A DNA stretch of 64,000 nt from Oligoflexales bacterium (lineage in GTDB: Bacteria; Bdellovibrionota_B; Oligoflexia; Oligoflexales; CAIYRB01): positions 1-64,000 of the forward strand of contig JBGSUI010000240.1 of assembly GCA_041736175.1 (NCBI GenBank). Reading direction: 5' to 3'. Below, piece after piece: positions 1 to 42,176 of this stretch. A program made the translations under genes and the position numbers. The number at the start of each line of letters is the position of its first letter. Within the stretch, counting starts at the first letter, position 1. The notes under the pieces are model-generated. The model was not told where the DNA came from and made no database searches. It saw nothing but the letters and a program-made list of their open reading frames with translations.

Positions 1-38
1 ACCATTTATGTTGCTCAAAGAAACCACGGTCCGGGGGC

Positions 39-578
39 CTAGGCTGAGCATGTTACCTGCGTTGGTTTTTGAGAAGTTACAAAAAATGGGTGGGTCAATT
101 TACTTGAGCCTAGGTGGGTCAAATTAGTCAAGCGACGTAGCCGGTTTCCATCGGTAAAAGATTTTTGATAAATTTCATTTGTTGGTCTTGTCTTTTCTAT
201 CCATTCCGTCACAGATAGCTCTTGCCTTTGAAATGTAGGATCAAGGACCACTGGCTCGTCAGTCTCGCCTCTTATCACGGTTGCAACATGATACTGCCAT
301 CCAATGCTCGGAAATGGGGCAAAAGACCCAAAGATAAAAATTTGATTAGAGGGAATTTTCTCTAAAGCAAGCTCTATAGCGAGGTAAAACGCTCGTGTTT
401 CACATCCTGCCAACTTAAAATCGTAGGGAAGGTAGTCAATCTTACTCAAAACGGCGAGTGCTGTACCTAATTGGTTATCATTCCCCTGAATAGTCGAGCT
501 ACCGAGTGAATGATTACCCGAACCACAAGCGCAGAGCATCCCGTAATAAATTAGTAAATAAACACTAAGACGTTTCAT
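39..578 (-). CDS. Protein-glutamine glutaminase (deamidase)-like lipoprotein
   Basis: Lipobox-like LCAC. The motifs GCETRA, WQYHVA and VLDP give the Cys-His-Asp triad in the order of the protein-glutaminase family. Confidence 0.7.
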   Translation of the reverse strand: MKRLSVYLLIYYGMLCACGSGNHSLGSSTIQGNDNQLGTALAVLSKIDYLPYDFKLAGCETRAFYLAIELALEKIPSNQIFIFGSFAPFPSIGWQYHVATVIRGETDEPVVLDPTFQRQELSVTEWIEKTRPTNEIYQKSFTDGNRLRRLTNLTHLGSSKLTHPFFVTSQKPTQVTCSA

Positions 579-603
579 ACTCGTTTTCCCTTGCTAGGGT
601 TGA

Positions 604-623
604 GTCATGGTAACGACCATGAC
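604..623. promoter_or_regulatory. Perfect 8-4-8 inverted repeat GTCATGGT-aacg-ACCATGAC, candidate operator
   Basis: Seen directly, about 25 bp upstream of the 578 start codon. Confidence 0.4.
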
Positions 624-926
624 AAAATCTCTTTGAATGAACATAATATCCTCAACTGTTTAGACTCTTTGCATCGGGAAAAATCGAAAGAGATCTGCTC
701 CAAGCTGTATGTCTAAGCAACGATTTACCAATCTTGATGAAGATTGGATTGGCATAAACGACTTATCAAAACCTGTGCCGTAAAGCAGTATCCTACAAAA
801 GGCTTTAGTTTTTGCCAGATCAAAATGACCAGGTCTATCTGTAAACAATGAACTTAAGGAACTTCACTCCACGATACTGCAAACCAAAGCAGCATGGCTA
901 TCCGTTGATCGAGACCTTTAGACAAC

Positions 927-2783
927 CTACCTGTACACGATCTCCACCCTAAAATCCACTGCCCTTGCCTTGGCCCTCATCCCGAATTTGCCAGGCCACC
1001 GCCGCTTGGCCGTAGTCAGGCTGATGCCCAGAGCCTCCGCTACGCCCCTTCGGGTAAGGCGGCCGTCAGCGAGCCTTTCTCTGATCTCGATGTCAGAGAG
1101 CTTGATTAGATCCTGACCGGATGCACCTTCCTTGCCAGAACCATCCGGCACGATCACCGCGTGGGTTGCCACCAGTTGCAGGGCTTCCCGGAGGCTCCTA
1201 TGGCGTTCTCCACGGTCACCGCTATCGCCCTCGTCACCAAGAGCAGCGGTTAGAGCCGCCCGTATCATAGCAATCGTGAGGTGAGAGGCGTCCGCGGGTT
1301 TTGACCTGAGCCTGGCCCCTGTGGCCACAGCGTCGGCTTTTGCCAGCTGCTCCTCCAAATCTGAGATGACACTTAGGTTTTTGTCTCGCACCCGCAGGTA
1401 GGTGTCATCGGCGAGGAGACCCGCGGCCCATTTTTCAGTTACCTTAGTTAAGAGATCGCGTTTTTTTTCCAAGGAGTCTCGAGCTGCCTCTGCCGCTAGT
1501 GAGGCCTGCTGGGCTTCGGCTTCGGCCGCATCGCCATTTTTAAGCCTTGCGATCACCGCATCTATTAAGGAATCGTTGGCTGAAAGGGTTGAAATTTCCC
1601 GAGCTGCAAGCCTCTCTACATCCTCCACACGAAAAGTCCGGTGACTCGGCTGCTCGGAGCAAACGTAAACGGGATGAGTCCGTCCGTGCCCCCTCGTCAC
1701 CATGCGGCCTTTACATTCTGAACACTGTAGAAGCCCGTGAAGCCACCTTTTGTGATCCCGAGGTCTTCGTTTAGAGGTGATGCGGTCGTGGTAGTCTTGG
1801 TACCTAACGCGGGCCTTTTCAAAAAGCTCCTCGTCAACGATTCGCGGCACCTCGATCACTTTAGTCGTAAGCGAGATATTGTACCTGGCCTGGGGCTTGA
1901 AGCTCACGATAAGCCGCCCTGCGTAGATCTCGTTTCGGAGGATCGCCAAGACATGGTAGCGATTCCACGGACCGGGTTTTGCCGACGGGGTCACCGCTAC
2001 CCACGGCGAGCGGTCCACTCCAGCGGAGTTTAGTTGGTCAGCGATGTCGTAAACAGAAAGGGGTCTATTGCCATAGACATTGGAGAGAGTTTGGGCACCC
2101 GCGCCGCAGTAAAGCCTGAAAATGTCACTCACGACTTGGGCCTCTTTTTCGACCACGAAATAGCGCCAAGGGTTTTCTTTTTTGCCGGTCTTCTCGAACC
2201 GATATCCAAAGGGCACGTTGGTGAGCCGCCACTGGTCTTGGTTGACAAGTTTTTGAATCCGACCCGACTGGAGCATCCTCGAGTTTTCAAGTTTAGCGAT
2301 GGCCCCTAGTTCTTGGATGACTGCGGAGGCGATCCGGCCTGACGTGTCTGTGACACGGTAGACCACATCTTCGCTTTGGCTGATAAGGCGGACACTGAGG
2401 TGACGGAAAACGTCGGTGATTTCTCCGCGAAGTTCGGCACTCTCGCCCCGAAAAATCCGGTCGCTTGCGGCGACGATGATGGTATTGACCTGCTTGGCCT
2501 TGACCAGTTCGATCAGTTTCCAGAATTCTCGGTCCGAGTCTTTGGCCTCGAGGTTATAGCCCTCGTCTTTAAACACGTCCACGAGGCGCGCGGATTCATG
2601 AGTCCCGAACAGTCGTTCGTAACGTTCCTTAGTGACCGCAAGCTGGCGTTCGATCGTATCCTCTTTTGCTTGTTTATTCGTCGAGACCCGGGCGTAAATG
2701 GCAACCAGAGGGGTTTTGCCAGCTCCACCTTCGTAGACTGGTTCCTTAAGTTCCTTGAGTCGACTTTTTTTAAGGTTGGCCAT
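927..2783 (-). CDS. Large serine recombinase B, with an extra C-terminal HTH
   Basis: Catalytic YARVST, SDRIFR, recombinase-domain PFGY and ILRNEIYAG, Zn-ribbon CSEC, coiled coil, and HTH-like RRGVAEALGISLTTAKRRW. Confidence 0.95.
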   Translation of the reverse strand: MANLKKSRLKELKEPVYEGGAGKTPLVAIYARVSTNKQAKEDTIERQLAVTKERYERLFGTHESARLVDVFKDEGYNLEAKDSDREFWKLIELVKAKQVNTIIVAASDRIFRGESAELRGEITDVFRHLSVRLISQSEDVVYRVTDTSGRIASAVIQELGAIAKLENSRMLQSGRIQKLVNQDQWRLTNVPFGYRFEKTGKKENPWRYFVVEKEAQVVSDIFRLYCGAGAQTLSNVYGNRPLSVYDIADQLNSAGVDRSPWVAVTPSAKPGPWNRYHVLAILRNEIYAGRLIVSFKPQARYNISLTTKVIEVPRIVDEELFEKARVRYQDYHDRITSKRRPRDHKRWLHGLLQCSECKGRMVTRGHGRTHPVYVCSEQPSHRTFRVEDVERLAAREISTLSANDSLIDAVIARLKNGDAAEAEAQQASLAAEAARDSLEKKRDLLTKVTEKWAAGLLADDTYLRVRDKNLSVISDLEEQLAKADAVATGARLRSKPADASHLTIAMIRAALTAALGDEGDSGDRGERHRSLREALQLVATHAVIVPDGSGKEGASGQDLIKLSDIEIRERLADGRLTRRGVAEALGISLTTAKRRWPGKFGMRAKARAVDFRVEIVYR

Positions 2784-4527
2784 GGTAGGCCTCCCCTAAC
2801 ACGGCCAACGGTTCGGATTTGGTCAAATGCACCCTGTAAACCGGCTTTTTATTGGTCCCGTTGGTCTCCTTGAAATCCTTGGACTCGTTGCCCTGTTGCT
2901 TGTTGACGATGACCAGGAGTTTGGCTGCAGCAAAAACCACCCTTATGGATCTCCCCCCCCGTTCCATATCTTCGGTCAACTCTATGATGGCTTTTTCGAT
3001 AGCCTCCTTTGGCCTTAAGATCTCCAGTGCGGAGTTTGCGAGTCCTCTTTTGGAATGGAGCTTTGCATCTCGTTCCGCTAATGCGACTTCAACTTTTAAG
3101 GACTCCATCGACCTTTCGTATTCCTCCTGACTCACTTCATCCAGCGCGTATCTTTCGGTGAGTCGGTCGATGAGGGTGTGAAGCTCCGCAAGTTTGGTCT
3201 TGCCCGATTGTTTGGGGGTCTTTTTAAAATCAGCATTGATCTTGTCCAACGCTCGATCTTTGAGAGCCCCTTTGAATGCGTCGTTAAAGGTGAGCGATTT
3301 GACCAGATCGCCCACGGCTGTCTTAAGAAAGTCGAGCCGCGGCATCACATGGTGCTTTCTGCATCCATAATAAGAAGAACCGCGTTTATAATGATTGATC
3401 AACGACAAATGCATACCGCAGTGCCCACAGTGGAGAAAATCGTGAAACCAAACGTCTGCCGGCGTGACCATTGGCGCATCGGAATGATCGGATGCTTCGC
3501 CACGCTCTTTTCTTATTTTTTGCGCGGTCTCGAAGGTCTCCCGATCGATGATCGGAGTCTCGAGACAGACTTGCCGGACCTCTTTGTCTGGAAGTAGATT
3601 GGTGCGACGAAATCTAATGGTCCTGACCCCGGTGTAAAGTTCGCAGCTTAAAATCTTGACCACCGCCTCAGGGGTCCACAGCGGACTGGAATTATGAGCG
3701 GCCTCAGAAATCCATGCCTCTCGACTCACTCCCGCGTCGCGCAGGATGCGGGCGATACGGATATAGCCGATCGGCGTGCCGCCCCCTGGTGGCAAAATTT
3801 TCGGCTTTTTGCCTAAGTAAAGGGCGAACACGTCGCGGATGATGGCGGCTTCCGAGGCCACAACACGGTAAGAAAAATGCTTTTTACTTTTGATCAGGGT
3901 GCGATCCACCCTGATGCCATAAGGGGCGATGGGCTGGTGATACTTTCTGTTTTCCACTTGCAGACGAAACCCCGTCTGCAGAGATTTCACCAACTCGATT
4001 TTGTTGGCGCTGCCGATCTCCTGGGACAGAGAACTCACCAATCTTGATTGGGAATCCGCAAGACTATAGACGACGTCGGACACCGGGGTGACGACCCGCA
4101 CCCCACCTCTGCGCAAAGTATCCAAGATTTTGCCTCGTATCGAAGCTTTTTCTCCCCGAAAAATCCGGTCGTCCGCAGCGATGACGATGGTCGATATCAT
4201 GGATTTTTCCACAAGGCTGAGGATTTTCCAGAAAGCTCTCGTGGCTTCGAAGGTTTCAAGGTTATAGCCCTCGTCCGCGAAAGTGCCGACAACCGTCGCT
4301 CCCTCGGCTACAAGCTTATTCACGATTTTGTCGCAGAGAAACCGCTGCCGGTCGATGTTGTCGTGCTTTGCCTGCTCCTCGGTCGAGACCCTGAGGTAAA
4401 CGGCCACGAGTTCGCGCCTCTTAGGCGGCTCCCTCGTCGCTTCCCGGGATCCATTTTGACTTGGACTTGTCCGAGTTGGCTTTTTTCGATTTTGATTTTT
4501 CGGCTTCACCGGGTCCAACTTCTTCAT
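2770..4527 (-). CDS. Large serine recombinase A
   Basis: YLRVST, DDRIFR, APYG, ILSCELYTG, CGHC and a coiled coil. Overlaps recombinase B by 14 bp. An alternative GTG start at 4407 has a GAGG SD and follows the small ORF's stop. Confidence 0.95.
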   Translation of the reverse strand: MKKLDPVKPKNQNRKKPTRTSPSQNGSREATREPPKRRELVAVYLRVSTEEQAKHDNIDRQRFLCDKIVNKLVAEGATVVGTFADEGYNLETFEATRAFWKILSLVEKSMISTIVIAADDRIFRGEKASIRGKILDTLRRGGVRVVTPVSDVVYSLADSQSRLVSSLSQEIGSANKIELVKSLQTGFRLQVENRKYHQPIAPYGIRVDRTLIKSKKHFSYRVVASEAAIIRDVFALYLGKKPKILPPGGGTPIGYIRIARILRDAGVSREAWISEAAHNSSPLWTPEAVVKILSCELYTGVRTIRFRRTNLLPDKEVRQVCLETPIIDRETFETAQKIRKERGEASDHSDAPMVTPADVWFHDFLHCGHCGMHLSLINHYKRGSSYYGCRKHHVMPRLDFLKTAVGDLVKSLTFNDAFKGALKDRALDKINADFKKTPKQSGKTKLAELHTLIDRLTERYALDEVSQEEYERSMESLKVEVALAERDAKLHSKRGLANSALEILRPKEAIEKAIIELTEDMERGGRSIRVVFAAAKLLVIVNKQQGNESKDFKETNGTNKKPVYRVHLTKSEPLAVLGEAYHGQP

Positions 4528-4729
4528 TGAGGTGCTTCACTAAACTTGATTTCATGAGTTCTGCCGCTACCAGTTCGGCCAAAGCGTCGATCAGTTCGCC
4601 ACTTGCGGCATAATCGCGCCCACCAACGGAAAAGGCCGGCGTCTCGGATCCAGAAAGCTTGAGATGGCGACCCGGGACCTTTTTGGCTGCTTTTTTGGCT
4701 GACTTTTTTGGTGACTGTGAGACTTTCAA
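4421..4729 (-). CDS. Small Lys-rich protein upstream of the recombinases, possible accessory or directionality factor
   Basis: TTG start with GGGGGA SD, first ORF after the sigma-28-type promoter, with an amphipathic helix LIDALAELVAAELMK. Function is inferred from position only. Confidence 0.55.
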   Translation of the reverse strand: MKVSQSPKKSAKKAAKKVPGRHLKLSGSETPAFSVGGRDYAASGELIDALAELVAAELMKSSLVKHLNEEVGPGEAEKSKSKKANSDKSKSKWIPGSDEGAA

Positions 4730-4782
4730 GGTTCCCCCGAAGTGGACCTGACCTAAACATTGCCATGAAGGCTTCAGGGGTT

Positions 4783-4809
4783 TTATCGGCGGGATAGGGG
4801 CTGACTTGA
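4783..4809 (-). promoter_or_regulatory. Sigma-28 (FliA)-type promoter of the small ORF/recombinase operon
   Basis: Minus strand reads TCAAG-N14-GCCGATAA, a perfect FliA -10, 54 bp upstream of the 4729 start. Confidence 0.7.
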
Positions 4810-4903
4810 CTCCTTGGGGGAGAAATTTTCAAATTTTCTTGAAGATACTTTTTTATCACTTTTAAATCCTTTAATTTCAGTCTGTTACAGCGTGTGGACC
4901 AGT

Positions 4904-4930
4904 TTGCCTAACCTGTACGGCGTTAGGCAA
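4904..4930. repeat. Perfect 9-9-9 inverted repeat TTGCCTAAC-ctgtacggc-GTTAGGCAA, candidate att site
   Basis: Seen directly, at the junction between the AT-rich arm and the gene remnant. Confidence 0.65.
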
Positions 4931-5021
4931 CATGCCCCCTGGGCAAGCAGGTCCACCCTTTGCTGGCGCGGTCTTCGATCTTAAAGAATCGGTCCGCTGC
5001 TGGTTGGAGCAAAACCCATGA
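4911..5021 (+). pseudogene. Orphan 3' end of an interrupted gene with a cytochrome c-like MPP...W C-terminus
   Basis: Frame reads TCTALGNMPPGQAGPPFAGAVFDLKESVRCWLEQNP*. Its TGA overlaps the DUF1501 ATG (ATGA). An in-frame TAA at 4872 means the 5' part is missing here. Confidence 0.6.
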
Positions 5022-6385
5022 AGAAACCTCCTAAAAACAATGCAGAAACCAGCTGGCGTATCAGCACACCAAAGCTTGTGGAAGAATGCTCAAGGCGCCA
5101 ACTCATCGAGACAGGGTTTAGCCTTACGGCCTGGACCACCGCAGCCACCCTGTTCGGGTCACAGGCCGTCCGTGGACAAACAGCCTACACACCAAAACGC
5201 AACCTTATTTGGATCAATATGGGTGGGGGATGGGATATCCTCGAAGTCACGGATCCCAAGCCAGCCTCGACCGCCGGGATTGACCTCCTCTATGGCTTCA
5301 ACGAAGCTCGCGACGTGGCCCAATCCACCGACGGGGTCAAAGTCGGTCGGTGGCTCTCCGGCATCGCCGGCCTAGGCCAAGACCTGCTTGTGGTGCGAGG
5401 GCTCGCCATGGGAACCACCTCCCACAATGCTGGGATGGTTTATATGGATACGGGAATCCTAAGCAACGCCGGTCGCGTCAATGCCGCTTCGATTCCTGCG
5501 ATTGTTGCATCAGAGAGCCAAGCCACAATCCCCATCATTCAACTCTCCGGGGGCACCGACCCCCAAATCGACCGTGGTCTCCTGAATCCCGTTTCCGTTG
5601 TGCGGGCGGGCAACCTGGATCTTTACCGCTCGATGTATCCTGCAGAAGCTGACATCACTCGCAAACTCGCGGTCCTCGATTACCTGAAAAATTCGGTGAC
5701 CGATCTTGAAACCAAAGTGGGTAAAAACGACCGTCTCTCCAATCTAGCCGCTGCTGAATCGAAAGTCCGTGGCCAATTCACCACCAATGTTGGGGCTAAA
5801 TTAGCGCTCACCGACGCCGACCGGGCTCTCTTTAGGAACGGAGCCCCGACGGGGATGAACACTGGCTTTCAAGATGCTGTAGCACTTGCCTTAAAATTGA
5901 TTAATAATGACATATGTACCACGATAAACCTAGGCATTGGAGGATTTGACACACACCAAAACCAATCCACACGGCTTCAGCCGATTTTGCAGTCTGTTGA
6001 TTTCGCCATGGCAAGGTTAGTGGCTGGCCTCAAGGCTTCAGGAAAGTTAGATACGACGTTGATTGTGCTCTATTCAGACTTTGGACGGACCCCCCGGGTC
6101 AACGGCTCCAATGGGCGGGACCATTGGCCGACAGGAGGTGCATTGGTGATGGGTGGCAAGATCGATGGGGGACGTGCTGTCGGAGCATCCACAGATGACA
6201 CTTTAAGTGCCGTCAACCTCATCGACACCAACACCGGTGTTGTCACCAACGATCCCGCAACCGGCACCCAACTCAACCCAAGCCATCTTGGTGGCATGGT
6301 CCTGGCACTCACCCTAGGGGATGGCTACAGCCAGTTCCGGCCCTACTTGGCCGCGCTCCCCTGTATGACACGAACGAGGACCTAG
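5018..6385 (+). CDS. DUF1501 family protein, probably Tat-exported
   Basis: Twin-Arg SRRQL, then INMGGGWD, GGFDTH, SDFGRTP and GRDHW motifs. Confidence 0.9.
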   Translation: MKKPPKNNAETSWRISTPKLVEECSRRQLIETGFSLTAWTTAATLFGSQAVRGQTAYTPKRNLIWINMGGGWDILEVTDPKPASTAGIDLLYGFNEARDVAQSTDGVKVGRWLSGIAGLGQDLLVVRGLAMGTTSHNAGMVYMDTGILSNAGRVNAASIPAIVASESQATIPIIQLSGGTDPQIDRGLLNPVSVVRAGNLDLYRSMYPAEADITRKLAVLDYLKNSVTDLETKVGKNDRLSNLAAAESKVRGQFTTNVGAKLALTDADRALFRNGAPTGMNTGFQDAVALALKLINNDICTTINLGIGGFDTHQNQSTRLQPILQSVDFAMARLVAGLKASGKLDTTLIVLYSDFGRTPRVNGSNGRDHWPTGGALVMGGKIDGGRAVGASTDDTLSAVNLIDTNTGVVTNDPATGTQLNPSHLGGMVLALTLGDGYSQFRPYLAALPCMTRTRT

Positions 6386-7596
6386 TGAAGAGTACGCAAG
6401 AGGTTACGAACCTCCTCCATGCCACCCTGGTAGTTTTAAAAATATTATGTTTAGTGATCCTATGCAGCCTGTGGATTCTACCAGACGCGGCTTTAGCCCA
6501 GCTTGGAGAACACACGGCTTTGATGCCCACCGATACCATGGTGCCCCCTGTGGTCATGACCCATCCTGGGGTGATGCCTCCCAAAAGTCGCGCCAACGGT
6601 CACGAAGCCGGTCTGCTTATGACCCGCGACGAACGTACGTCAAAACTAGACCATACCACTGTGGGCGGCGATGATATTAAGTCGGTTGTTTCTGATGAAG
6701 CGGTTCTTGGGGCGGTTCATTTTGACTTAGGTGCAGGAGCCCGGGTCGCCTTGCTCCACGAGCTGGTTTTTCGCAAAACAAAGACCACTTCCAGCGCCAT
6801 CCGTCGAGGAGTCCCCCGTGAGGAGGTCGAGAGGATCCAGATGGACGCGCTTAAAATCACCATCGAGCTTACCGAAGGCCTGACCGCCGGCATGATCCTG
6901 CGCTATGTCTATAGAGACCGTCTCATCTATGGCGATCTTTCCGTTGCTCAGCAAAATCGATATAAAATTTCCATGATCGGCTACGGTGGGGGCGCTGCCT
7001 TAACCCTTAAAAATTTCGGTTTAGGATATGCTTACTATCCACAATTACGGGGGAAAACAGACGTTCTGGGCGAAGAAAAAATTGTGGTCGAACCTGGATT
7101 TCTCAACATCGATGTATCCTACAAACCAAGTGATTCCTTGGCTTTTTCGCTTCTCAACCGGCGCTTTTTGTGGGAACTAGACGATATCGGTCGAGGCACG
7201 ACCAATACCGATACCAACCAGACCCGTATTTCTCTTTACGGACTCGATCCCGACCAATACCTTTTGACCGACACTTTGACGATGCTCGGTGTTTCCTATG
7301 AACTCGGGAAAATAGCAACTCTAAAAGTTGCTTTAGGCCAAGAAAAAGCCCATTTTAATTTTCAAGATTTGTTGGTCTATAATCGCGTCGACGTGCGACA
7401 AAGGACGGGTGACCCGAGAGATCTCACTTACAATCGCGCGAGAGCCCAAATCAGTTGGCTACTTAACAAAGGTCTCGACATATCTTTAGGCATGGGTCTT
7501 TATGAGCGTAAATTTGAATTTCCAACCGCTATGAATGGAGGCACCTACGAGGCCTCAGGTAGAGAACTCATAGCGGCAGCAGGCATCAGTTTTTGA
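6385..7596 (+). CDS. Putative outer-membrane beta-barrel protein
   Basis: Signal peptide, amphipathic beta-strands and terminal Phe (AGISF). Confidence 0.65.
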   Translation: MKSTQEVTNLLHATLVVLKILCLVILCSLWILPDAALAQLGEHTALMPTDTMVPPVVMTHPGVMPPKSRANGHEAGLLMTRDERTSKLDHTTVGGDDIKSVVSDEAVLGAVHFDLGAGARVALLHELVFRKTKTTSSAIRRGVPREEVERIQMDALKITIELTEGLTAGMILRYVYRDRLIYGDLSVAQQNRYKISMIGYGGGAALTLKNFGLGYAYYPQLRGKTDVLGEEKIVVEPGFLNIDVSYKPSDSLAFSLLNRRFLWELDDIGRGTTNTDTNQTRISLYGLDPDQYLLTDTLTMLGVSYELGKIATLKVALGQEKAHFNFQDLLVYNRVDVRQRTGDPRDLTYNRARAQISWLLNKGLDISLGMGLYERKFEFPTAMNGGTYEASGRELIAAAGISF

Positions 7597-7636: not shown

Positions 7637-8242
7637 ATGACACGAATTCTTGTTTTGAACGCGGGGTATGAGCCTCTACAGCTCGTGAGTTGGCAGAGGG
7701 GACTCTGCTTGGTTTTATCCAACAAGGCTGAGGTAGTCGAGCGCTCCCGGGCTGTGGCTCGCTCGGTAAGCTGCACGATAGAACTCCCCTGTGTGGTGCG
7801 GTTAGTTCGCTATGTTCACAATGTCAGCAAGATGGGTATGGTGCGTTGTTCCCGACGAAATATCCTGCTCCGAGATAGGTTCCAGTGCCAATACTGTGGC
7901 ATCAGGTGCAAACCCGCCCATGCGACCGTGGACCATATTGTACCTCGCGTCATGGGGGGAAAAACCACCTGGACGAACGCCGTGGCCGCATGCAATAACT
8001 GCAATCGGAAGAAAGGGTCTCGCAGCCTTGATTCTTCGGGCCTTAAGCTCATGAGAGCACCCAGGCGCCCCACGTGGAACGATCTGTTTGTGGTCCCCAA
8101 GGAAACCCACGGCGAGCTTTTGGCGGGTCCTGGTCTAGGAGTCGACCTGCAACCAGGTACTGTCGATACAAACCACGAGGCACGGGTCCAAAGCGTTCAG
8201 GAGATAGGCTTTAGAGAAGTTTGGCTTAAATATTTGAGTTAG
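7637..8242 (+). CDS. HNH endonuclease
   Basis: LVLNAGYEPL N-terminus, RDRFQCQYCG, TVDHIVP and ACNNCNRKK. Confidence 0.9.
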   Translation: MTRILVLNAGYEPLQLVSWQRGLCLVLSNKAEVVERSRAVARSVSCTIELPCVVRLVRYVHNVSKMGMVRCSRRNILLRDRFQCQYCGIRCKPAHATVDHIVPRVMGGKTTWTNAVAACNNCNRKKGSRSLDSSGLKLMRAPRRPTWNDLFVVPKETHGELLAGPGLGVDLQPGTVDTNHEARVQSVQEIGFREVWLKYLS

Positions 8243-39457: not shown

Positions 39458-41254
39458 ATGAAATTAAGAACCACACAGTTTCTTTCCACAAACGGGAAAA
39501 TGATCCTTTCATGGGTGATCGCTGTGAGCGGGGCGCTGCCTGAAAAGCTGTCCGCGGCAAGCCCTGTCTATTCCATATCAAAACTGGGGATTAAAAAGCT
39601 AGAAAGTCCCACAGATGACCCGCGAGGCCCTATTAAATTAACTGTGGACACCTCCCATACCGGACAGATTTCACCCTATATCTACGGATTCGGTGCGGTT
39701 TCGGGCGCCTCTGAGCTTTGGAGCGCGGACAACCAATTCAGTCTGTTTAGACTCGGTGGCAATCGATTTACCGGCTACAATTGGGAAAATAATATGTCCC
39801 ATGCGGGCAGCGACTGGCGTTACCAAAACGACCTATACCTATGCTCTAATCTTAACCCCATCGTCACGATGAAAGATTGCTCTAACCCTGGTGGCGTCGT
39901 CAGCGGATTTGCTAAGCAGGTCTTTGGGGTCAACGGGAGTGGACCAACGGCAAGTATCTTGGTCACCATCCCCATCATCGGTTACGTCGCCTATAAAGCC
40001 ACAGATGGAGATGTTTGCGCACCAGCCAACCAGCTCAAAGACGGTAACTGTAAAAATCGCGATTATCTTAAGACTCATTTTAGAATATCCCGAACCAAAA
40101 CTGCTGAAAAACCGACAACTAATCCAAATTTATCAGACGAGTATGTTAATCAAAATGAGTTTATAAAGTGGATCTTTGAGAGCTTCCCCGATAAGAAGCG
40201 GGGAGACTCACAGATTTTCTTTTCGCTCGATAATGAAGTCGCCCTTTGGGGAACTACCCATAATCGAATCCGACCGGGGGGTGATTTTTGCCAACACAAC
40301 CCCTCTTACTCCGAAATCCTCAAGCGCAATATCGACTACGGGTCTATGGTCAAAGAAATCCGGCAAGATGCACTGGTTTTTGGGCCCGTGGATTACGGTT
40401 GGTACTCGATGACAAGTCTTCAGGGCTTTGGTCACTGTGACGGTAACGGGAACGTCAATTTTTACGAATTCTATCTCAAAGGCCTCAAAAAAGCCGAGGA
40501 CGAAGCTAAGACTAAAGGTCCCATTGTCGACATCCTAGATTTCCATTGGTACTCTGAAGTCGAACCCAAACAGGGTGTTCGGATCACCCATAAGGATGCC
40601 CCAGATAGTCTCGAATACCATCAGGCCCGCATCGATGCTACTCGGACTCTTTGGGACCCAACCTTTGTGGAAGACACTTGGATTGCAAAAAAAGACCTGG
40701 GTGGCAAGGCAATCCGTCTGATACCACGGATGCGGGAAACCATCGAAAAATGGAACCCTGGGATGGGCCTTGCTATCACCGAATACAACTATGGAGGTGA
40801 AAATCAAATCAGCGGAGCTATTGCCCAAGCAGATATTTTAGGGATTTTTGGGCGCGAAGGAGTCTTTGCGGCATCCTACTGGCCACTCTCATCTAATTCC
40901 TCTTATATTTATGGTGCATTTAGGATGTTTAGAAATTTTGATGGCAAACGCAGTCGCTTTGGCGATACTGGATTAGCTTCTGCGACTTCAAGCCCAACCC
41001 GTACTTCCATCTACGCCAGTATCGATCCTATAAATCCTAAAAATCTGGTCTTAGTGGTCCTTAATAAGACAAAAGACCCCTTAACTGTTGACCTCAGTAT
41101 GAAAGGAACGACCCAAACGTTTAAATCAGCAGAAATCTACAAATTAGATAAAAGCTCCCCGCTACCAGGACTTCTCAAAAAGACGCCCTTTTCAGACCTC
41201 AAAAATCTCTCTATTCCAGGATTCACCATCTACACAATCAGAATAACACCTTAG
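39458..41254 (+). CDS. GH44 endoglucanase
   Basis: ISPYIYG, RLGGNR.TGYNWEN, LDNE, ITEYNYG and ADILGIFG. Confidence 0.9.
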   Translation: MKLRTTQFLSTNGKMILSWVIAVSGALPEKLSAASPVYSISKLGIKKLESPTDDPRGPIKLTVDTSHTGQISPYIYGFGAVSGASELWSADNQFSLFRLGGNRFTGYNWENNMSHAGSDWRYQNDLYLCSNLNPIVTMKDCSNPGGVVSGFAKQVFGVNGSGPTASILVTIPIIGYVAYKATDGDVCAPANQLKDGNCKNRDYLKTHFRISRTKTAEKPTTNPNLSDEYVNQNEFIKWIFESFPDKKRGDSQIFFSLDNEVALWGTTHNRIRPGGDFCQHNPSYSEILKRNIDYGSMVKEIRQDALVFGPVDYGWYSMTSLQGFGHCDGNGNVNFYEFYLKGLKKAEDEAKTKGPIVDILDFHWYSEVEPKQGVRITHKDAPDSLEYHQARIDATRTLWDPTFVEDTWIAKKDLGGKAIRLIPRMRETIEKWNPGMGLAITEYNYGGENQISGAIAQADILGIFGREGVFAASYWPLSSNSSYIYGAFRMFRNFDGKRSRFGDTGLASATSSPTRTSIYASIDPINPKNLVLVVLNKTKDPLTVDLSMKGTTQTFKSAEIYKLDKSSPLPGLLKKTPFSDLKNLSIPGFTIYTIRITP

Positions 41255-42095
41255 GGTTTGTCAATGGATTTACTGCAGGCAAGATTACGACAAAACAAGT
41301 GCACTCCGAAGCGTGGTCTAAGCAGAGTTGGCCATGGAAATTTTCTACGATGCCCTTTGCTATCGATAAGCCAAGACCATACCCGTTGTGTTTTGTAGAT
41401 CTATAGGACCTTTTTCTGTCTGAGGCTTCCACCAAGGGCATACCAGGTCCATTGTCCATGACTTTGATCGTAACAACTTCGGTTTTCTGAACAGCGTGGA
41501 TCTTTATCCAAGGATTTTTCATACCGTGCACTGCGTCCAACGAGTTGTTCATTAGGTTTGTGACGACCTGTGACAGTTGCCCAACATCCCCCCATACTTT
41601 GGGGTTTTCCTTCAATTCGATTTCAAGCTCGACTCCTTGGCTTTTGACCCGCTCCTGCCAAAGGACCTTGGATTCTTCGATCACTGCGCACAGTGGCCCG
41701 ACGACGGCATTTTGTTCACCATGGGAAGAACGCACCAAGCCACCTAAAGTTCTTGTCAGGGTTTCAATACGCCGGGCCATGCGTATGATGGTATCTAAGT
41801 CCTGCCTGAGTTCTTGCTTACCATAGGTAGCCAGCCCCACCAACTCTAAGGCACAGGCCTGTTTATGGACCTGCTCACATTTTGTGAGAAGAACTGTCAA
41901 CGGCGACCTAATCTCGTGGGCCACCGAAGCGGTGATCTCTCCGAGCCAAATAGAGTCGGGAGAATGACGAGAATGAGGAGATTGACCGCCTTGGTTGGAG
42001 CGTGTGGAATTTCGTCTCCAGCGCCCTTTCAAGATTTTCCCTAAGGCCACCAAACCCTGCCACAATTTATCGATTCTATTTATTACGAAGGTCAC
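41238..42095 (-). CDS. Sensor-less histidine kinase
   Basis: AHEIRSPL, NLMNNS.DA, DNGPG and GYGLGL boxes after only about 50 N-terminal residues. Confidence 0.85.
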   Translation of the reverse strand: MTFVINRIDKLWQGLVALGKILKGRWRRNSTRSNQGGQSPHSRHSPDSIWLGEITASVAHEIRSPLTVLLTKCEQVHKQACALELVGLATYGKQELRQDLDTIIRMARRIETLTRTLGGLVRSSHGEQNAVVGPLCAVIEESKVLWQERVKSQGVELEIELKENPKVWGDVGQLSQVVTNLMNNSLDAVHGMKNPWIKIHAVQKTEVVTIKVMDNGPGMPLVEASDRKRSYRSTKHNGYGLGLSIAKGIVENFHGQLCLDHASECTCFVVILPAVNPLTNPKVLF

Positions 42096-42176
42096 CTACT
42101 GAATCTCCATCCACCGATCCCAGTCTAGCGGCCGAGCCACACCATAAATCAATCAGCAATCCCTGGCAATGCGCTA

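Follow-up and report, generated by a model that had tools for sequence, protein, structure and literature searches.

Overlapping genes for two large serine recombinases form the recombination module of a mobile genomic island in an Oligoflexales bacterium

Why does a mobile element carry two large serine recombinase (LSR) genes side by side, and do both enzymes take part in its integration? Serine integrases are prized genome-writing tools, and a single enzyme of this kind needs a roughly symmetric target. To our knowledge, CcrA/CcrB is the only well-studied natural two-enzyme solution to an asymmetric target. The question is raised by positions 927 to 4,527 of a 64,000-nucleotide stretch of an Oligoflexales bacterium (assembly GCA_041736175.1, contig JBGSUI010000240.1; the whole stretch is called the window below), where two LSR genes, LSR_A and LSR_B, lie in the same orientation. 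An original prediction, made from the DNA letters alone, had taken them for tandem paralogues of a distinct subfamily that may act as a heteromer. What is new here is that these two genes make up the recombination module found at the right end of an integrated mobile genomic island, whose insertion site is resolved to the base. The asymmetry of this site suggests that two enzymes work together, as CcrA/CcrB do, and we regard it as about an even chance that LSR_A and LSR_B act together on it.

The island was delimited by comparison with four relatives of the same family, in which the gene order is a 250-aa gene, a gene of about 580 aa, a DUF1501 gene, a further open reading frame (ORF), an HNH gene where present, and a SerB-like gene. 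In the present genome (G000), the 250-aa and ~580-aa genes are on contig C259, and the order from DUF1501 onward is on the window contig (C45). It turned out that DUF1501, the ORF, the HNH gene and the SerB-like gene are syntenic with the four relatives, while the LSR pair and the ORF at 39-578 are not. The ~580-aa gene is continuous in all four relatives, its stop overlapping the DUF1501 start. In the nucleotide alignment, agreement with the relatives extends on C259 as far as GGCAA at 42143-42147 and starts again in the window at the GGCAA of 4926-4930. Since homology breaks off on C259 (42147-42149) and resumes in the window at the same GGCAA, the insertion site can be read to the base: the island split the 3' end of the ~580-aa target gene at this 5-bp common core and replaced its last 29 codons. 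The target-gene orthologue now spans C259:40508-42205, with a native body (40508-42147) followed by about 19 island-encoded codons, and the detached end in the window reads ATGA, overlapping the DUF1501 start at 5018. In Pfam, the target gene gave only sub-threshold matches to PSD2 and PSCyt3. Two other candidates for the interrupted gene were rejected, namely DUF1800, as PF08811 was not found in the genome, and a tRNA, as the window contains no tRNA genes.

To describe the attachment sites, half-sites were read outward from the core with the 15-mer at 4894-4908 (half-site P, 17 nt from the core) as reference. Half-site P' (C259:42163-42177, 15 nt from the core) matched it at 12 of 15 positions and B' (window 4942-4956, 11 nt from the core) at 13 of 15; among 20,000 shuffled 40-mers, a score of at least 12 occurred in 0.035% and of at least 13 in 0.005%. 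Besides, an independent repeat finder reported the P/B' pair as a 15-nt inverted repeat. The best score in half-site B was 7 of 15, and this odd half-site is present in attB and attL. Three half-sites (P, P' and B') share the 15-bp motif, which in attB stands 4-6 bp closer to the core than it does in attP. For the LI integrase, excerpts of Rutherford et al. (PMC3783163) describe a zinc-ribbon motif lying about 5 bp further inward in attB, tied to repositioning of the zinc-ribbon domain; the inward shift found here has the same pattern, which points to an LSR-type site anatomy. As a separate observation, two 9-bp stretches in the P arm of attR (4904-4912/4922-4930), 9 nt apart, form a perfect inverted repeat, the right arm of which includes the core; it might offer another site for protein binding or act as a regulatory hairpin.

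The element was also found in other metagenomes. Positions 900-5100 of the window are present nearly whole in four runs of one study, possibly the source, and in part in runs of five other studies, and contigs of runs X1, X5, X6 and X7 were compared with window 1-6500. The contigs of X5-X7 have low depth (2-5x) and show presence only; window parts they leave uncovered are not evidence of absence. In run X6, a contig of 1464 nt covers 929-2384 with 153 differences and no indel, and a contig of 2488 nt covers 2435-4930 at about 90% identity with 230 differences. The sole coding indel listed for the latter is an in-frame one of 9 nt within LSR_B, and its leader indels at 4699-4738 measure 1, 1, 1, 2, 3, 3, 6, 6 and 1 nt. 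Past 4930 this contig continues with 25 letters that equal C259:42148-42172, a single-copy sequence of the genome located directly after the left-end core. It joins the right end of the island to the left end across the core and so represents the attP junction of an unintegrated form, whether circular or not; as the two ends are joined in this unrelated metagenome, the element is mobile. X5 and X7 contain the pair at 82% likeness or more; an X7 contig spans attR (4837-5022), and an X5 contig (2729-2983) and the longer X6 contig span the gene overlap. In summary of these runs, the pair, its overlap and the att-proximal region are conserved at about 90% identity in three other studies. In run X1, no loose end marking attP or an empty attB was seen.

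Both ORFs of the pair proved to be intact and encode LSRs of 618 aa (LSR_A, P0001) and 585 aa (LSR_B, P0002) with 32% identity across 541 aa (BLASTP, E 2e-61). The two reading frames have 14 nt in common, with a Shine-Dalgarno-like GGGGAGG (2796-2790) 6 nt 5' of the LSR_A ATG; the overlapping frames argue for equimolar co-production. The junction also bears on whether two nested or adjacent elements, with one integrase each, have met at this locus. Excerpts of PMC13739063 describe SCC elements that are nested or in tandem and contain several ccr sets, and the region to the left of LSR_A (window 141-928) is uncovered in X5-X7, but the 14 shared nucleotides exclude an element boundary between the two genes, and the same junction occurs in X5 and X6. 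We consider such a composite origin very improbable.

Both proteins exceed the Pfam cut-offs for the Resolvase domain (23.3 bits; 41.2 for LSR_A and 33.0 for LSR_B) and the Recombinase domain (21.1 bits; 41.6 and 38.0), and are slightly below that for Zn_ribbon_recom (25.3 bits; 23.7 and 19.5). LSR_A consists of a catalytic domain, helix E, a recombinase domain (RD), a CCCH zinc ribbon, a coiled coil (CC) and a C-terminal four-helix module resembling a helix-turn-helix (HTH), at about 556-600, with weak Pfam matches to HTH_24 and HTH_7 at 566-597. The C-terminal module is present in LSR_A and its single-gene relatives and absent from LSR_B, which begins with a basic 39-residue tail. The two proteins are most alike in the catalytic domain (48% identity), followed by helix E (29%), RD (27%), the zinc-ribbon domain (ZD; 25%) and CC (17%). 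The AF2 model of LSR_A has a mean pLDDT of 88.9 and long helix pairs at 417-453 and 459-494, which form the coiled coil. For LSR_B the mean pLDDT is 84.8, with the N-terminal domain, helix E, RD, ZD and CC all modelled confidently and the coiled-coil helix pairs at 416-461 and 467-522. In Foldseek, run with the LSR_A model only, the best matches were full-length LSR-DNA complexes (9dxh, 9y66, 9rah and 9iu2; probability 1.00).

The catalytic serine is kept in both proteins, as the original prediction had stated (S34 in LSR_A and S48 in LSR_B, within Y-x-R-x-S), together with the Q, Q, D, R and D-R-x-x-R residues. In LSR_A, conservation is complete or at least 90% for R32, S34, Q47, R109 and R112, and D73, R85 and D108 do not vary in alignment A1; the LSR_B counterparts of the catalytic-motif residues are R46, S48, Q61, D85, R121 and R124. 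These residues were mapped to Tn3 numbering by motif order (PMC2794168, excerpts), not by direct alignment to Tn3 resolvase.

What sets the pair apart from most LSRs is a group of signatures noted from the start, DEGYNLE, FWK(L/I) and DRIFRGE, all of which were found in both proteins. When the pair was aligned with its three nearest database proteins, N77, L78, E79, F87, W88, D108, R109, F111, R112 and G113 were invariant in all five rows, as were H349, C354, C357, C375 and H381. The D.G.SG-type motif after the second strand is not matched in the pair, S-G being replaced by N-L, and N77 of LSR_A aligns with the motif Ser of the TP901-1 integrase (HMMER). Among the 138 rows of best database matches, 97 have [S/T/A]-[G/A/S/R/K] in the N77-L78 columns; in the other 41 there is N, or the second residue is hydrophobic (28 NL, 3 NA, 2 NF, 2 NM, 4 SL, 1 AL and 1 TL). 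Excerpts of PMC2794168 report that Tn3 resolvase S39A keeps high in-vivo resolution and that this Ser was judged non-catalytic, which suggests that the change from S to N need not cripple catalysis.

The second signature concerns the zinc ribbon, where His had been proposed to replace the fourth Cys. C354, C357 and C375 of LSR_A are conserved. Of the 97 canonical rows, 93 have a fourth Cys no more than 20 residues after the third, but such a Cys is missing in 28 of the 41 N-L-like rows. In 29 of these 41 rows, His occupies the column of H381, and the stretch x-x-[FY]-R-A-x-D-x-E after it is conserved; a sister group of 11 rows retains the Cys. By alignment, H381 is within one residue of the fourth Cys of the solved SPbeta integrase. 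CRKHH of LSR_B reads CRKRH in its orthologue P0167, so that the second His is the conserved one. The proposed pattern was seen in both proteins and in most N-L-like rows, and His is predicted to stand in for the fourth Cys as a zinc ligand. In a different part of the protein, some clade members of 778-790 aa, among them P0005 and that of locus L010 (G075:C33), have transposase-type HTH domains (PF13384, PF01527, PF13518 in precomputed annotation) fused C-terminally.

A clade profile built from five sequences was searched against 1.84 billion representative proteins. There were 27,795 matches at E <= 0.001 and 6,777 at E <= 1e-10, but just 41 remained at E <= 1e-30, and scores fell clearly after about 45 proteins. 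In a tree of 69 rows (LG+G4, quick search), 39 N-L-type rows were split from 30 canonical D.G.SG rows with an SH-aLRT of 99 on both sides, and LSR_A and LSR_B were both among the 39, in line with the distinct subfamily of the original prediction. Judged from these sequences, the DEGYNLE/FWK/DRIFRGE and His signatures mark a rare LSR clade rather than this pair alone. Its distribution is sparse: the subfamily is in 3 of 131 genomes of the phylum (G000 with these two copies only, and G075 and G077 with one each), and it was absent at E <= 1e-20 from all 60 relatives of the same family or order. The G077 locus belongs to an Oligoflexus sp. metagenome-assembled genome and has its order in common with G000.

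Whether the pair arose by tandem duplication, as had been suggested, is a point on which the tree is compatible with two histories. In the best tree LSR_A is among single-gene relatives (support 94) and LSR_B is one node deeper (85 and 88), which separates them, but forcing them together costs only 0.89 lnL units and is equally acceptable (p-AU 0.477). An old tandem duplication followed by fast change of LSR_B is as compatible with these data as separate origins. In either history, LSR_A looks like a typical clade member and LSR_B like a divergent paralogue: the terminal branch is 1.05 for LSR_B and 0.83 for LSR_A against a median of 0.59, and apart from the orthologue P0167 no relative of LSR_B exceeds 34% identity.

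Such divergence raises the possibility that LSR_B is a redundant duplicate on its way to being lost and without a function of its own. Its long terminal branch, the loss of the C-terminal module and Pfam scores below those of LSR_A would fit this, but the 585-codon frame is intact, and so is P0167, a protein of 582 aa from another study that is 91% identical to LSR_B and starts at M1. The differences between the two cluster in the N-terminal tail, residues 86-180 being unchanged; what's more, the coding indels listed are in-frame only and the AF2 model is confident for all LSR domains. We consider drift towards loss improbable. For LSR_A, the short-protein search gave no fragmentary orthologue, and an orthologue was instead seen on the X6 contig.

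The expectation that such genes always occur in pairs was not borne out. With tblastn of both proteins, one LSR place each was found in six other clade loci (L003, L006, L007, L008, L009 and L010), with flanks of between about 1 kb (a single side) and 8 kb (each side), and G075 and G077 have one copy each. As all six loci are single-LSR, the clade is normally single-gene. At one of them (L006:184-827), two small overlapping ORFs of 110 and 104 aa were observed directly 5' of the single LSR, in a toxin-antitoxin-like layout.

These results lead to a model in which the pair would be the integration and excision module of the island. One transcript, starting about 400 nt inside the right end, would yield LSR_B and LSR_A from the overlapping frames. 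The two proteins would then recombine attP with the asymmetric attB of the target gene in one synaptic complex, cutting within GGCAA. LSR_A, like its single-gene relatives, would occupy the motif-bearing half-sites P, P' and B', and LSR_B, whose catalytic domain is kept while helix E and the DNA-binding domains have diverged, would serve the odd half-site B. Gene overlap, retention of the pair in the metagenomes of three other studies and the 3+1 half-sites support a CcrA/CcrB-like heteromer indirectly; that both proteins are needed, and which protein belongs to which half-site, is what the model would predict. We also ran a complex prediction with both catalytic domains and helix E. The A-B score of 0.46 (best of three controls 0.00; contact agreement between runs at least 51%, partner pLDDT at least 74) weakly supports the complex. 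Of 157 solved complexes, 116 passed the mark used for this score, as did 2 of 215 mismatched pairs; at scores of 0.60 or below it was passed by only 18 of the 157 and by both of those mismatches. Since solved serine-recombinase dimers exist, the score shows likeness and not binding. In its fullest form, the model describes an obligate two-subunit LSR that evolved independently in a Gram-negative environmental lineage, with LSR_A reading the three motif-bearing half-sites and a fast-evolved LSR_B the fourth, in a clade whose chemistry would be distinctive next to the active site (S-G to N-L) and in the zinc ribbon (CCCH), a proposal that we make tentatively and hold somewhat short of even.

Several points weigh against joint action. 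The two attP motifs have an odd spacing (39 nt) and imperfect symmetry, and the crossover dinucleotide could not be fixed within GGCAA. The att analysis comprises one integrated copy and one attP read-out of 25 letters from a contig with a depth of about 4. Many single-LSR systems have a poorly symmetric attB, so that one odd half-site demands no second enzyme, and the six single-LSR loci mean that LSR_A-like proteins presumably work alone elsewhere. No recombination directionality factor (RDF) was identified, and the interior and size of the island are unassembled because both contigs end in repeats.

Some of these points would favour a different division of labour, in which LSR_A alone is the integrase for the att sites described here and LSR_B has another role, such as a second target, multimer resolution, internal inversion or control of directionality or expression. 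LSR_A clusters with single-gene relatives that must suffice alone, LSR_B is without the C-terminal HTH-like module and has its nearest non-orthologue relative at no more than 34%, and the perfect 9-bp inverted repeat in the P arm could be a separate binding site. But the overlapping frames speak for equimolar amounts, every catalytic-motif residue of LSR_B is kept in a catalytic domain unchanged across about 9% divergence, and the small assembled part of the island contains no second candidate site pair. We hold this possible, though rather doubtful.

Joint action of LSR_A and LSR_B can be compared with several known systems. Like the pair, the genes of CcrA/CcrB lie next to each other in the same orientation at one end of an island, which integrates into the 3' end of a chromosomal gene. 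The division of labour proposed here is the one described for CcrA/CcrB on the asymmetric sites of SCCmec; which Ccr protein binds which part of them is reportedly the subject of Misiura et al. (2013). By excerpts of PMC4363357, two serine recombinases collaborate to recognise the asymmetric site of SCCmec, and those of PMC13739063 describe three half-sites of the SCCmec att sites as similar and the fourth as lying within the reading frame of rlmH. The island described here shares three similar half-sites and one odd one, the odd one being in attB and attL, a likeness of architecture only. By sequence the pair does not belong to CcrA/CcrB (NF047343 and kin): the CcrB NCBIfam model gave LSR_A 36.4 bits against a cut-off of 900, LSR_B matched neither CcrA nor CcrB, and the CcrC model gave 33.6 and 20.4 bits against 900. 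The XisF model (NF041201) gave 59.5 and 36.9 bits, which does not reach its equivalog cut-off of 375. The two systems also differ in LSR clade (here N-L for S-G and a CCCH ribbon), phylum, target gene and core.

Multi-LSR modules are already known beyond ccrAB. For instance, the integrase triplets of Streptococcus integrative and conjugative elements (ICEs) resemble the pair in having several co-oriented LSR genes at the element end and gene-disrupting integration with repeats of 2-8 bp, comparable to the short core found here, according to excerpts of Ambroset et al. 2016 (PMC4701971). In the same excerpts, triplet paralogues cluster by position, which was read as old duplications, and the systems differ from ours in having three genes and in belonging to conjugative elements of Firmicutes, whereas no conjugation genes were seen in the present island, as its interior is unassembled. 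The single phage integrases LI/A118, SPbeta SprA, PhiC31 and Bxb1 are similar to LSR_A in full-length fold (Foldseek 1.00) and domain order, with a sequence identity of 14-18% to the solved ones. According to excerpts of PMC3783163, single phage integrases share with the pair the attP/attB half-site logic, the outer motif being closer to the centre by about 5 bp in attB, but act as homotetramers of one protein with a four-Cys ribbon. The pair comprises two proteins, with His for the fourth Cys and N for the motif Ser, and LSR_A has an additional helical module at its C-terminus. By sequence, the pair falls outside the known multi-LSR families, in a different, rare LSR clade. A literature search for serine recombinases with Oligoflexus, Oligoflexia or Bdellovibrionota gave no co-mention among the matches listed.

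Table 1. Features of the island right end and its surroundings (positions in the window)
Feature	Position	Strand	Details
LSR_A (P0001)	927..2783	-	618 aa; ORF call and Pfam
LSR_B (P0002)	2770..4527	-	585 aa; ORF call and Pfam
Gene junction	2770..2796	-	LSR_A ATG (2783-2781) within the final LSR_B codons (stop 2772-2770)
Non-coding island leader, LSR_B to att site	4528..4893	.	Mechanical ORFs 4421..4729 and 4524..4859 probably not genes
attR	4894..4956	.	P motif 4894-4908, core GGCAA 4926-4930, B' motif 4942-4956
Detached last 29 codons of target gene	4931..5021	+	Alignment with four relatives; codons counted from sequence
Lipoprotein-like ORF with Gln_deamidase_2 (protein glutaminase) domain	39..578	-	Pfam, 44 bits against a cut-off of 25
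Multi-copy IS-like repeat, outer end	1..140	.	Ends the contig

The other features around the pair are summarized in Table 1. The two mechanical ORFs of the leader had no Pfam match, and small ORFs 5' of LSR_B were rejected as an Xis/RDF-like gene on this ground and on that of the frameshifting indels in X6. Rfam gave no match at E <= 0.01 at either island end, and promoter and terminator scans over 500-5100 gave counts not above those of shuffled sequences. A scan of IMG/VR with the clade motifs returned 63 pattern matches, none encoding a relative, which says nothing on viral origin either way. The ORF at 39..578 is probably variable island cargo, for which the lack of cover of window 218-868 in X5-X7 at 82% likeness or more is weak evidence.

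At the left end, a ParB-like gene (C259:42633-43766, equal to L024:3634-4767; HTH_ParB sub-threshold) is found just inside the island. It is 33% identical (E 3e-17) to L007:1420-2130, the divergent neighbour of a single LSR, and has a paralogue on contig C185:3984-5047 with 71% nucleotide identity over 1077 nt. A ParB-like gene, attP and an LSR may form a conserved module.

The genome is rich in repeats that break assembly. The 140 nt that end the window contig abut at least five different flanks (on C45, at the ends of C110 and C111, and inside C24 and C116) and have a depth of 330 against 37 in run X1, about 9-fold; this IS-like repeat contains an internal short direct repeat and cuts the 3' end of the ORF at 39-578, and its body is outside the binned genome. 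A second, unrelated repeat ends C259 (44165-44305, equal to L024:5166-5306) and stands at or near about 17 other contig ends. Outside the island, an HNH endonuclease gene (7637-8242) is located between the DUF1501 operon and the SerB-like gene, as in the syntenic loci of G001 and G003, and tblastn found none at the G007 and G008 loci.

In conclusion, the heteromer question is open to direct testing because the sequences of the four att sites can all be given, and a second two-enzyme system with readable attP, attB, attL and attR would make it possible to test directly how half-site recognition can be divided between paralogues. If joint action of LSR_A and LSR_B is true, the pair would be a second natural case, with no relation to Ccr, in which serine integrases split the recognition of a site, and LSR_B would let the element target a conserved coding sequence without inverted symmetry. 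For the LSR family, a rare clade in which the motif Ser-Gly and, as predicted, the fourth zinc ligand are replaced bears on what is essential to the fold. For the organism, it means that a mobile island truncates a gene translationally coupled to DUF1501.

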